A stretch of 64,000 nt of DNA, taken from positions 41,230,001 to 41,294,000 of the forward strand of contig OX597837.1 in NCBI GenBank assembly GCA_951406725.2, given 5' to 3'. The notes beneath the pieces are model-generated. The model was not told the DNA's origin, did no database searches, and saw only the letters and a list, made by a program, of their open reading frames with translations. The position numbers and the translations under genes are program-made. The DNA comes from Octopus vulgaris. Lineage: Eukaryota. How positions within the stretch are numbered: the stretch's first letter is position 1; each line of letters begins with the position of its first letter. Of the stretch, positions 2,022-62,613 are shown piece after piece.

Positions 2022-2400
2022 ATCCAAACTTACAGGGAATAAATCCAAACTTACAGGGAAAAATCAGATTTAGGATTGAATCCAATTTTATAGTAAAATA
2101 TTATATTATATTAAATTAGAGACAAAACCACTATTAGGCAAATCAAACAATGAAAAACTTAAGCCAATACATATGATTAAACCTCGCCAAGAAAAATATT
2201 TAAACCACCTGATGAATGACTGCGACTCAAAAATTTGAAGATGTTAGCAGGCATGAAACGATCGTAGTGTGATATTAATTATATTTTTTTGATAATTTTG
2301 TTATATATTTAAATAATATAAATTAATCATATGTATTGGCTTAAGTTTTTCATTGTTTGATTTGCCTAATAGTGGTTTTGTCTCTAATTTAATATAATAT
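2022..2400 (+). mobile_element. PLE-type non-autonomous element with inverted repeats and hammerhead, within (TA)n
   Basis: ~77 bp perfect inverted arms 2104-2180 / 2323-2400 around a hammerhead; first ~110 bp very similar to 61784-61890. Confidence 0.7.
2206..2269 (+). ncRNA. Type I hammerhead ribozyme
   Basis: cac-CTGATGA-atgactgc...gcaggcat-GAAA-CGATCG-TA-gtg: stem I cac/gtg, stem II 7 of 8 bp, palindromic stem III, GUA cleavage triplet ending 2266. Confidence 0.85.
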
Positions 2401-2436
2401 ATATATAAATATATATAAATATATCCACATATATGT

Positions 2437-5496: not shown

Positions 5497-5990
5497 TTAA
5501 TATTTAGTAGACATGCCCCTTGTATTTTTCAATGCGAGAACCCTATTAGGCATGTTTCTGATCAGATGACGAATATTCTCTTGAGGAATTTCTTGCCAAG
5601 ATCTGACTTTGAAGCTGCTTTCTTGTTCTTTTTATGAAGGGCCCTGTCCATTATGTCCCAGAGTTGTTCAATAGGGTTCGTATCTGGTGACCAGCTTGGC
5701 CATGGAAGCTGTTCTGGGACTGATATCAACTTGTTTTGTTATGTCAGAAGCCTTGCAACGAGGAATATCCTCAACACTTCTCTTAGCAAATAGAAAGGTC
5801 CTGGTTGATCTGTGCGAGGTGATGTAAATTCTGTTCCCTCTCTGGTGAATTGCAGAATCACTCGATTAATGTAGAAAGCGAAACCCAAAGTTTTCTGCGA
5901 TTTTACGCTATGTCCATCTTCAGAATGACCCACAATACGGCCTCTTTGAAATTCAGATAGTTCTAAGGCTTCTTTTATACATAGCATGAT
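5497..5990 (-). pseudogene. Tc1-family transposase remnant, internally deleted
   Basis: N-terminal ELSEFQRGRIVG (paired-like HTH start), WPSWSPDTNPIEQLW (Tc1 SPDLNPIE motif) and C-terminal ...RGMSTKY-stop. Confidence 0.85.
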
Positions 5991-13894: not shown

Positions 13895-15049
13895 TGTATG
13901 TATGAAAAGCACCTCTGGAGTCGGCGAGACATATGCAGAAAGACAAAGATAAAGGTGTATAAGGCATGTGTGCTCCCTTCTCTTCTCTATGCCTGCGAGA
14001 CGTGGGTCACATATCGATACCACCTTAAACAACTGGAACGTTTCCATCAGATGTGCCTCAGACAGATCTATGGCATTAAGTGGAAGGACCGCATCAGTGA
14101 TCTTGAAATATTGGAAGGCTCTCGGTGTGAAATTATAGAAGCTCTAGTGTTATAGCAAAGGCTCAGATGGAGTGGTCATCTGGTCAGAATTTTATCTGAT
14201 AATAACTATTTTATCGAGAGTTATCTAAAGGAGAACGACCTCCACATAAACCAAAAAAGAGGTATAAGGACTTGCTGAAGGCTTCCTTAAGAGATGCTTG
14301 CCTCTCTCCTGACACATGGGAAGGCATAGCTATTTATCGTGGAGAAGGATTGTGCACGAGGGGACAGCCACTTTTGAGAAATCTCGAGTTGCACATGAAA
14401 AAGTAAGAAGGGATATCAGGAAGGGCATCGCTGTTACACTTCCAGAAGGGAAGGGTCTTCCTTTGATGCTGATATGCAATGTCTGTGCAAGACCCTGCCT
14501 CAGTAAAGCTGGACTCAAGAGTCATCTTTGCAGTCATAAAACGAGACAGATGAGTGACAACCCGGCCACTGGTGGTGGTGTTAGACACCATACTAATCAT
14601 ATCTGTCGGACATGTGGAAGAGAGTGTAATTCGGCAAGAGGACTTAAACGACATGCAAAGATACATGAAGCCCAGTTACAACTACAGCCGGCTATTACCA
14701 GTAAAGGTTTTAGTTGCCAATTTTGTACAAGACATTGTAGATCTTTAGCTGGGCTAAAACGTCACATTCGATCACATCACCAGCAACAGTTAAGCTTCGT
14801 GCAAATGCCATACTCCATAACGAGGGGGCAGCCATAATAATAATAATAATGTGTGTGTATAAGTTTGTGTGTCTGTGTTTGTCCCCCCAACATCGCTTGA
14901 CAACCGATGCTGGTGTGTTTACGTTCCCGTCACTTAGCGGTTCGGCAAAAGAGACCGATAGAATAAGTAGTAGGCTTACAAAGAATAAGTCCTGGGGTCG
15001 ATTTGCTCGAGCATGACCACAGTCAAATGACTGAAACAAGAGTAAAAAA

Positions 15050-56336: not shown

Positions 56337-56911
56337 CACACACACGCACACACACGCACACATATCAAAGTAACCTTCTGCTAAAAACATACTTCACTCC
56401 CACTCGTTTTCCAGTAAGCCGGACACAAATCTGGCGTTTCTGACTGCCCGTGCTATTGCGAGTTTATCGTTGAAGCTACATTGCATTCGTCCGTTCTTTT
56501 GACAAGTTTTGCTTTACTACTGCTGAGCAACACTCATAACCAGCTCAGCTAGATTGGGGTTGCCGGTTTAGTCGCTGATGATCCGATCATGCGACATGTG
56601 AAACCGGATATGCAAGAAATGTCACTGGACATGTTGGGAATATTTTGCTTCCGGTTTAGCTCTCCACCTCATTCCTGAGCGTGTGACCCATATGAGACCG
56701 GATGTCTTGCCTTGGCTTGTCTCTGGATCATATTATAGGCGGAGGAAGGGACTATGAGGCGTCGTGGAAGCTTCACTGGACCAAAAATTTGTTTTTAACC
56801 TTACACCTTTCAAACCGGCGGAGCCAAAAGTATAAAGAATAAAGTTGTGTGAATACACCGTATGCTTGATAGCCAGTTATTGCATTCCTTAGTCACAAGT
56901 GTAAATCCATC

Positions 56912-59866: not shown

Positions 59867-60780
59867 TCATAAGAAATATAAAATCAAACCGTAAAACTTC
59901 TTTAAGTACGCCAAAGAAACTGCCTCTGTGTGTTGCAAGGTAAGGCCATTCCTCCAAAACGATGATTCCCTCAGGGGAAATTCAAGGAGAATACGTGAAT
60001 CCCTGAATGAACACTTCACAGGTGTTAACACGCACTCCTTACGGCTCCTGCAAGTTAGCAAACCTGTAGAGTTCTTTATTACTATAGATGTAAAAATGGA
60101 GGCAGTAACGATTGATTACATCAACATCCAAGAAGAGGATTCAATACTGGCAATAGTTGACGTAGATGCTCCCGAAAAAAAATGAAGGAGGGAATAATAT
60201 ATCCTAATCATAAAGGAGAAAGCAGGGCAGGGACTAAAAACTATAGGCCTATTTCTCTGACCTCACACATTAGCCAAGTCATGGAGCGAATAGTCCAAAA
60301 GAAATTAGTTGCATTCCTTCAAGAAAATGATTTGCTGACTGACACCCAGCATGGTGTTCGACCAAGTAGAAAACATCCTGACACAGTTCTTGCAGCTCTA
60401 CGACTGGGTGTTGATAAAGTCGGCCATGTTATGATATGTCACGTGCTGCGTAATCTTGACATAGTCGGAAACTTGGAGAATGGCTACATGACTTTCCAAA
60501 AGCTAGAAGTCATGTAGTGGTAGCCAACGGGGTCACCTCCAAAGAAACACAAATAATCAGTAGTATTCCACGGGGCACTGTGTTAGGGCAGTTGTTATTC
60601 AGAGTGGCTCTCTCAAACACGATCTCTCTGCTGCTCAGATAGCCACCCTTGCCAGTTATGCAGATGACACAAAAGTCTCTCAGAGGATACAGAACCCTGA
60701 AGTTGGCTGGATGGCTCGTTCGAACTTTCAGACTGAGAGAAAAGGAAACCATGATAGCCATCTGGAGGATTGTAGAGGTA
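59867..60780 (+). mobile_element. CR1/L2-group LINE reverse transcriptase pseudogene fragment
   Basis: KNYRPISLTSHISQVMERIV, QHGVRPSR, SIPRGTVLG, and YADD at 60657-60668; frameshifts and deletions. Confidence 0.88.
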
Positions 60781-61033
60781 TAACTAACCTGTCTTTCTGA
60801 CATTTTCTCTTGAAAATGTCGGAAAGACAGGTCAGTTATTCCCCTACGATTTTTTGTAAATTCTTAAATATATCTCCTGTATATATTTATATATATACTA
60901 CTAAACAAACATGATTTTTATTGAACTCAAAATACTTTTTAGGTGACTCGTTCTGATCACTTTCTTAAATACTTCTTTGTAAACTGTTTTAAACATTTTC
61001 TTATTATTATCAAAGAATGTATATCTGTATTTT

Positions 61034-61561
61034 AAATGGACATTTCTTTTAAACAACGAAAAGATAGAGTACAGGACATACAAAACAAGGAAAATTCCCC
61101 TTCTTCAGTCGCCTTAGTTTCATCTACTCCACGTTTCGAAGGTCAACGCGATACATGACTTCAATAAAACTTTCCTTCCCGCGAAAATCAAATTAAATAA
61201 AATTTGCGGGGTAAAAATGGTAACAAAAACAGGACAGTAACGATGTACAAAATATAAACAGTAAAAGACAGGACACGGAGAATAACAGTAACACAAACAA
61301 GAAGGGCTGTTAAGCCAAACGAGATAAAAAATTTTTACGAATGCTGTTTTTTGAGAACGGCAGGGAGCAACAGATTTTACCGTCTCTACTTGAAGGAAGC
61401 CAGGAGAAGAAAGACAGTGGTGGCCATCTCATCACGTGATGTATCGCCTTGACCCTCGAAACGTGGAGTAGATGAAACTAAGGCGACTGAAGAAGGGGAA
61501 TTTTCCTTGTTTTGTATGTCCTGTACTCTATTTTTTCGTTGTTTAAAAGAAATGTCCATTT
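61034..61561. repeat. ~123 bp inverted repeat (61034-61157 / 61439-61561), PLE-like element
   Basis: near-identical arms; degenerate hammerhead-like 3' half ctcGAAACgtggagtaga. Confidence 0.7.
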
Positions 61562-61746
61562 CCTTGGTTTTGTGTTTATGTTTTCGTTTCTCATTGGGTT
61601 CGACGTTTTTTGGAGTCCTGTACCTATATATGCATGTATATATACATGTAGAGGTAGGTACGTACATATATGTATGTATATATGCATGTTTTATTCATTA
61701 AGTTACATATATATATACATACATACATATATATACATATATATAC

Positions 61747-61777
<31 letters not shown>

Positions 61778-61953
61778 ATAAATATTAGGGAATAAATCCA
61801 AATTTACAGGGAAAAAATCAGATTTAGGATTAAATCCAATTTTATAGTAAAATATTATATAATATTAATTCGAGACAAAACCACTATTTTGCAAAACAAA
61901 CAAGGAAATACTTTAAAAATACATAAAAAATTTTGATATAAAGAAATAAACCG

Positions 61954-61996
61954 CCACTACAATCGTTTCATGTCTTCAATGACATTCGTCAGGTGG
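61954..61996 (-). ncRNA. Type I hammerhead ribozyme
   Basis: exact reverse complement of 62057-62099. Confidence 0.85.
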
Positions 61997-62056
61997 ATTT
62001 TCGATCTTCTAATCTCCTAATCTGTTTTAATTAAAACAGATTAGGAGATCGAAAAT

Positions 62057-62099
62057 CCACCTGACGAATGTCATTGAAGACATGAAACGATTGTAGTGG
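62057..62099 (+). ncRNA. Type I hammerhead ribozyme
   Basis: ccac-CTGACGA-atgtc attgaa gacat-GAAA-CGATTG-TA-gtgg; GUA triplet ending 62095. Confidence 0.85.
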
Positions 62100-62225
62100 C
62101 GGTTTATTTCTTTATATTAAAAATGTTTATGTATTTTTTAAGTCTTTCCTTGTTTGTTTTGCAAAATAGTGGTTTTGTCTCGAATTGATATTATATATAT
62201 ATATATATATATATACATATATATA

Positions 62226-62570
62226 TGGTGGTTGTCTACTCCTTATACAGATTTTGACCATGTGGCTTTTTAAATGTTTTAAATGTTCTGAAAAGACACC
62301 CACATAGATTGCACCTCCAAGTTGGACTAGATAAGTTCTGCTCTTTGTGGATCTTAAAATGTATTTTGAGGCCTCCCTTGGATTTGCAAACCCTCTGGCT
62401 TACACTGTATTCGAAGGTGTGGACAGACATATAGTCAGAATAGTTGGTGGAGGTACGTTTTCCATGCTTTCGCAGATGAGATTTGAGGCCAGCAAAAGAC
62501 AGGCATGGTCTGTCGTAAACTGTGCACACAAAAAGGTCATTGTCATTCACCTTCTCGATCGTAACATTCT

Positions 62571-62575
<5 letters not shown>
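62226..62575 (-). mobile_element. RTE LINE 3' fragment with three degenerate C2H2 fingers
   Basis: FVCTVYDRPCLSFAGLKSHLRKH, RVCKSKGGLKIHFKIH, WRCNLCGCLF; homologous to 14470-14790. Confidence 0.75.

Positions 62576-62613
<38 letters not shown>

Follow-up and report, generated by a model that had tools for sequence, protein, structure and literature searches.

A probable dead-end Penelope-like retroelement insertion with two hammerhead motifs head-to-head in a (TA)n microsatellite of Octopus vulgaris

Anatomy of the palindromic insert

Near the right end of the window, by which we mean the whole 64-kb stretch of Octopus vulgaris DNA analysed here, lies a palindrome of 340 bases (61856-62197), the centre of which falls between 62030 and 62031 (Table 1). 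An earlier note on this DNA had described a spacerless palindrome at 61784..62197 with arms of about 170 bp, an 8 nt indel near the centre and scattered outer mismatches. The palindrome is real and spacerless, and its arms are built as described: they are 175 and 167 nt long and 96% complementary, and differ by an 8-nt duplication and by six substitutions confined to the outer half (right-arm positions 62118, 62123, 62125, 62139, 62144, and 62187). Its start, however, lies at 61856, because the first 72 bases (61784-61855) are not palindromic and belong to a tail that is present on one arm only, with (TA)n directly beyond the right arm. The inner 87 positions are free of substitutions (P=0.011, for a region chosen after the fact). 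The whole insert measures 419 nt and is without a reading frame. The RNA of 61780-62200 is predicted to fold at -250.4 kcal/mol (z -41), and 0 of 100 shuffles folded as well. Within the tail there is an imperfect direct repeat (61784-61814 / 61822-61852). Matches to the tail motif in metagenome contigs were found at two loci over 21-22 nt only, and were taken as chance.

Table 1. Features of the palindrome locus and of the second family copy in the window
Feature	Position	Strand	Size	Remarks	Basis
(TA)n/(TACA)n microsatellite	61706-61778			left of likely target site; start approximate	sequence
Tail	61779-61855	-	~77 nt	one-sided 3' extension of inverted copy; absent from right arm	
Left arm	61856-62030	-	175 nt	inverted, 5'-truncated copy of element end (pLTR-like)	
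Hammerhead motif, minimal type I	61954-61996	-	43 nt	identical to 62057-62099 (+) copy	strict core-motif scan
Near-duplication of 62015-62022	62007-62014	+	8 nt	left arm only	
Perfect palindromic core	62012-62049		38 bp	head-to-head junction at self-complementary AATT 62029-62032	
Right arm	62031-62197	+	167 nt	5'-truncated copy of element end, without tail	
Hammerhead motif, minimal type I	62057-62099	+	43 nt		strict core-motif scan
(TA)n microsatellite	62198-62227			right of likely target site	sequence
Second family copy	2025-2405	+		tail 2025-2097, inverted arm 2098-2180, sense copy 2181-2405; (TA)n both sides	
Single hammerhead motif of second copy	2205-2270	+		longer stem II, perfectly palindromic stem III CGAUCG	

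In the window self-comparison, a second copy of the family was found at 2025-2405, matching the palindrome locus at 89% over 141 nt. The tails of the two copies are identical in 70 of 73 columns and lie on the inverted arm only in both, and the right arms of the two copies end at the same point. The inverted arm of the second copy, about 83 nt long, stops short of the hammerhead, and the arms of this copy agree at 98.8% over 84 nt. An inverted 5'-truncated copy adjoining the 5' end is thus present in 2/2 family copies in the window. No target-site duplication can be read in either, as both lie within (TA)n.

Hammerhead motifs and their predicted masking

A strict paired-core hammerhead scan of both strands of the 64-kb window gave exactly two matches, one in each arm of the palindrome (Table 1). 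The motif on the plus strand consists of a 4-bp stem I, CUGACGA, a 5-bp stem II, GAAA, and stem III CGAUUG, and is predicted to be cut after GUA, at 62095. As the earlier note had stated, the two 43-nt motifs are identical. This identity is nevertheless unremarkable, because with six substitutions in 167 positions a stretch of 43 nt would escape all of them with a chance of 0.16. The two window copies of the family agree in the core, CAC/GUG and AUG/CAU but differ in the length of stem II.

The hammerhead assignment rests on the core-motif scan along with the published description of minimal hammerheads (HHR). Rfam gave 0 matches at gathering score across the 64-kb window, and there was no hammerhead family among the 58 matches at E<=10 in 60500-62600. 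The microRNA models that appeared in the latter scan were rejected, being hairpin-shaped and far below their cut-offs; any long hairpin attracts such models. The hammerhead pattern also gave 0 matches in viral contigs. Two features noted by eye in both window copies were dropped: a distal extension of helix I, the pair probability of which is at most 0.04, and an ATG that opens stem II, as it does in the Anolis element, but meets a stop within 20 codons. A further CUGAUGA...GAAAC core at 56575 (+) is without proper stems and failed the strict scan. The two window copies vary most in the AT-rich stretch 3' of the hammerhead (62093-62170 and 2264-2372, both +); this stretch ends in a pyrimidine tract and AG and, judged by eye, may be short-intron-like.

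It had been proposed that transcripts entering the palindrome from either side carry the antisense arm first, so that the ribozyme is masked. This is supported at the level of prediction, as the pair probability of stems I and II is 0.00 in the palindrome and about 0.8 in 62040-62120, with 0.05 and 0.25, respectively, in the right arm alone. The same note had suggested that stem III could still pair in a dimer through G-U. Self-pairing of CGAUUG over 6 bp with two G-U is indeed predicted, but it is weak (-2.4 kcal/mol vs -6.6 for CGAUCG), and two molecules would be required because each transcript holds a single ribozyme. Without masking, too, the hammerhead fold of the monomer is predicted at -3.5, above the minimum of -7.8. 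The single minimal hammerhead is described as inactive and its dimers as weak (PMC4209133), and the PAc ribozyme of Anolis is described as having required protein (PMC11167929). Since the monomer fold is unfavoured, the CGAUUG dimer is weak and the published motifs are feeble without protein, silencing of the palindrome's ribozyme would be of little consequence.

In the second copy, the hammerhead is predicted to lie unmasked in the loop of the inverted repeat. Because it is not paired there with a complement, the predicted masking looks incidental to the palindrome locus. Two hammerheads and masking are thus not a property of the family but would follow from the point at which the inverted copy was cut short.

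The family in public sequencing runs

Part of the stretch was present in 20 of the 24 public sequencing runs listed by a search, representing 9 studies and 4 coded organisms, and the best run contained 0.58 of 33 words. The contigs of four of the listed runs (X1, X5, X2, and X11) were compared with 61780-62060 at a likeness of 82, and 1259, 1491, 1974, and 34 contigs in the four runs fitted this stretch. Summed depth, which is not copy number, reached about 1e6 over the tail and the 3' end vs about 1e3 at 62020-62029 in X1 and X5, and the depth at 62020-62029 was 2.5-3 orders of magnitude below that of the 3' end in X1, X5, and X2. This gradient fits a very high-copy, 5'-truncated family, although subfamily divergence may contribute. 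The family sequence extends further 5' than the palindrome centre, as seen beside the joints described below and at a loose end at 62014 in X11. The palindrome centre is thus a truncation point, because the family sequence goes on 5' of it in other copies. No RNA run was among the holders of the stretch in the 24 runs listed, and X11, which is guessed to be RNA, is without cover at 62040-62060, which is not evidence on expression.

Three joints were listed in which inverted arms ending at 61806, 61871, and 61963 are joined to the sense arm at 62027-62029. Each is a single contig with a depth of 30-55 and a short side of <30 letters at a likeness of 82, a kind of joint that is often spurious, and the one at 61871 is AT-rich and doubtful. 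The stretch compared, 61780-62060, could catch only junctions near 62030, and within it no strand-change joints were listed for the contigs of the four runs. One X5 contig is without 4 letters at 62027, and one X2 contig (record 24) spans 61954-62060 with 12 gaps; these two show that there are similar near-spacerless fold-backs elsewhere or at an allele of the palindrome locus. The exact palindrome locus was not recovered, in that no listed piece among the contigs of the four runs spans the stretch.

Within the hammerhead span (61954-61996) no substitution row was listed, and only an insertion in loop 2 (61977) was found. CGAUUG therefore looks like the common stem III form of this subfamily. 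In all four runs the right-arm letter accounts for about 97-100% of the depth at 61909, 61914, and 61935; at 61930 its share is 99% in X1 and 50-64% in the other three runs. At 61935, X5, X2, and X11 give the left-arm letter no depth and X1 gives it about 10, and the right-arm letters at 62125 and 62187 are supported by no row. At 61916-61917 the two arms agree in letters that are missing from most family contigs.

Origin and setting of the palindrome

We consider it very probable, at roughly 0.85, that the palindrome is a dead-end insertion of a Penelope-like retroelement (PLE), in which two hammerhead-bearing ends lie head-to-head in (TA)n with a tail on one of them. Four observations support the earlier proposal of a fold-back PLE integration product: the tail lies on one side only, (TA)n flanks the insert, a second copy exists at 2025-2405, and contigs of the family were found in the public runs. 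PLE membership is assigned on non-coding anatomy. A comparison of the 62 window reading frames with Pfam gave 0 GIY-YIG matches and no PLE-type RT, which counts against this membership; the single ORF of EN+ PLEs, with its PLE-type RT and GIY-YIG endonuclease, is expected to be absent from a truncated copy. An RVT_1 match at 60161-60514 (+), with an E of 4.7e-05 below the curated cut-off, lies 1.3 kb off and is tied to the PLE family by nothing; it is probably a decayed LINE.

In the mechanism inferred here, the PLE endonuclease/reverse transcriptase would cut an AT-rich site and prime cDNA from both DNA ends. One cDNA would start at a far start site on the RNA, giving the tail, and the other at a near site. 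Both would end prematurely, roughly 26 nt 5' to the hammerhead, and then be joined at the self-complementary AATT, either by microhomology or by snap-back self-priming. The 8-nt duplication may be a junction scar or the result of later slippage, and a snap-back of 19 nt followed by a jump would also account for it. A shorter inverted copy, as at 2025-2405, would leave only one hammerhead. Transcription across the locus is predicted to give a duplex of about 165 bp that would hide the ribozyme, presumably as a by-product rather than a selected function. This scheme has parallels in the accounts cited here: the PAc protein of Anolis is described as extending both target strands, with a preference for AT-rich cuts and with two RT start sites that delimit the tail (PMC11167929), and snap-back self-priming has been proposed for Adineta elements (PMC3846280). 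Snap-back self-priming fits the octopus locus equally well as the joining of two cDNAs.

As far as the published accounts cited below describe them, PLE insertions share much of this layout. In its standard form a PLE insertion is truncated at the 5' end, is often accompanied by an inverted copy next to it, and has a tail at one end (PMC8557442), and head-to-head junction palindromes are given as the most frequent arrangement in Adineta vaga Penelope (PMC3846280). The Adineta vaga Penelope families resemble the octopus locus in having a 5'-truncated copy and an inverted copy head-to-head, and the 38-bp junction palindrome of the octopus locus compares with 18-bp and nearly perfect 38-bp pLTR palindromes in Adineta (PMC3846280). 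The one-sided tail is like that of published EN+ PLE insertions, but it measures about 75 nt vs 30-40 bp in print. Compared with the Adineta insertions and the general scheme of PMC8557442, the octopus locus differs in being without a reading frame or a readable target duplication.

The minimal hammerheads described in metazoan PLE pLTRs (PMC4209133) are like the octopus motifs in their type I core, their 4-bp helix I, and their short near-palindromic helix III suited to dimers. In Schistosoma mansoni minimal HHR pairs on opposite strands, 100-700 bp apart, are reported, and truncated PLEs there share with the octopus locus the feature of two nearby opposite-strand motifs (PMC4209133). In contrast, the motif spacing at the octopus locus is 60 bp (61996 to 62057), helix II is 5 bp vs the 7-8 bp given as typical, and helix III is CGAUUG with G-U pairs, unlike the motifs presented in PMC4209133. 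Neptune-clade PLEs, which are defined by a Cys-rich linker between RT and EN, resemble the octopus locus in two published features, a pLTR hammerhead (PMC4209133) and a bias towards insertion into microsatellites (PMC8557442). The microsatellite bias is attributed to Neptune and Naiad elements alike, and Naiads are described as without a canonical hammerhead (PMC8557442). The Naiad clade was ruled out, as the hammerhead core is present in both window copies. Non-LTR retrozymes are, in the accounts cited, also short and non-coding, with a type I hammerhead and a relation to the PLE pLTR (bioRxiv 10.64898/2026.07.22.740005; PMC7229834). Their described structure is an array of direct repeats in tandem, with a hammerhead in consecutive units and all hammerheads on the same strand, whereas the octopus copies are inverted, with one ribozyme per transcript. 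A non-LTR retrozyme was ruled out, since both window copies are inverted and the self-comparison is without a direct repeat of the unit. The fold-back form with hammerheads is already in print (PMC4209133, PMC3846280, and PMC8557442). Our literature search found no paper naming the octopus PLE family, which supplements or repeat libraries may list.

The palindrome may instead be a non-autonomous mini-element that is copied as one unit, either by a PLE acting in trans or, in the manner of a MITE, by a DNA transposase. Its small size and its lack of a reading frame would suit such an element, as would the further near-spacerless junctions that X5 and X2 show near this centre and the letters at 61916-61917, common to both arms and rare among family contigs. 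However, the ends are asymmetric, with the tail on one side, and the second copy differs in both inverted-arm length and junction. The listed junctions also differ from each other, and the depth at 62020-62029 is far below that of the 3' end in X1, X5, and X2. We therefore regard a mini-element as improbable. A MITE or fold-back DNA transposon would have symmetric terminal inverted repeats whose structure is the same in every copy, which the one-sided tail and the differing arm lengths of the two copies do not fit. An assembly or library fold-back artefact is still harder to credit. Although the exact locus was not recovered from the contigs of the four runs and such structures are said to trouble short-read assemblies (PMC8557442), the arms differ at six sites plus 8 nt, whereas a single-molecule chimera would give identical arms. 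Furthermore, each arm has its own minority letters, which is compatible with post-insertion change or with two templates, and the asymmetry of the tail repeats in the second copy.

The prospect that the host keeps the hairpin locus as a trans-silencer, a siRNA/ADAR trigger against its family, seems as remote as an artefact. A long duplex is predicted, and Penelope small RNAs are described in Adineta (PMC3846280) and a hyper-edited Penelope in lizard; heavy editing is reported both for that lizard element and for a palindromic frog repeat (PMC5625713). The substitution-free inner 87 positions could point in the same direction, with the reservation on their choice given above, but the 8-nt duplication lies within that inner region, homopolymers abound in the outer one, and the identity of the ribozymes is expected by chance. 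Moreover, the second copy is unmasked, and other inverted pairs from dispersed SINE-like copies in the window would make this locus one duplex source among many. A broader version, unlikely in our view, is that the family recurrently folds back at a single short AATT/TTAA stretch immediately 5' to the hammerhead, thereby seeding many double-ribozyme hairpins, which would move as a palindromic unit or supply duplex RNA silencing or hyper-editing the parent element. The near-central fold-backs in X5 and X2 leave room for such a recurrent site, which, if true, would link PLE integration chemistry directly to self-silencing.

Taken as the dead-end PLE insertion that we favour, the palindrome alone would be one more truncated inverted insertion of modest value. 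The high copy number of the family, its long one-sided tail, and its readable junctions are, on the other hand, material for how PLEs form inverted pLTRs and tails, and a junction survey of the family could separate snap-back self-priming from the joining of two cDNAs.

The window around the two copies is repeat-dense and holds two SINE-like parts, with about 20 copies each, which we take to be octopus-type. The inverted pairs 29259/30039 and 33134/34278 were recognized as dispersed SINE-like copies and not PLE junctions. Another pair of inverted arms, 61034-61159 / 61436-61561, is 126 nt long at 97% with a 276-nt spacer, and is followed by about 60 extra bases past the right arm and then a TA-rich repeat. 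It lacks a canonical hammerhead core, occurs only once in the window and matches nothing in Pfam; it may represent a further stub of PLE-like type or else a non-autonomous DNA element. A DDE_3 transposase fragment at 5565-5738 (-), with an E of 1.5e-05 below the cut-off, is probably Tc1/mariner-like. In the right flank of the palindrome, a decayed zinc-finger frame at 62239-62560 (-) matches the C2H2 frame at 14313-14834 (+) at 35% over 99 aa, and both frames are likely the ends of LINE open reading frames.
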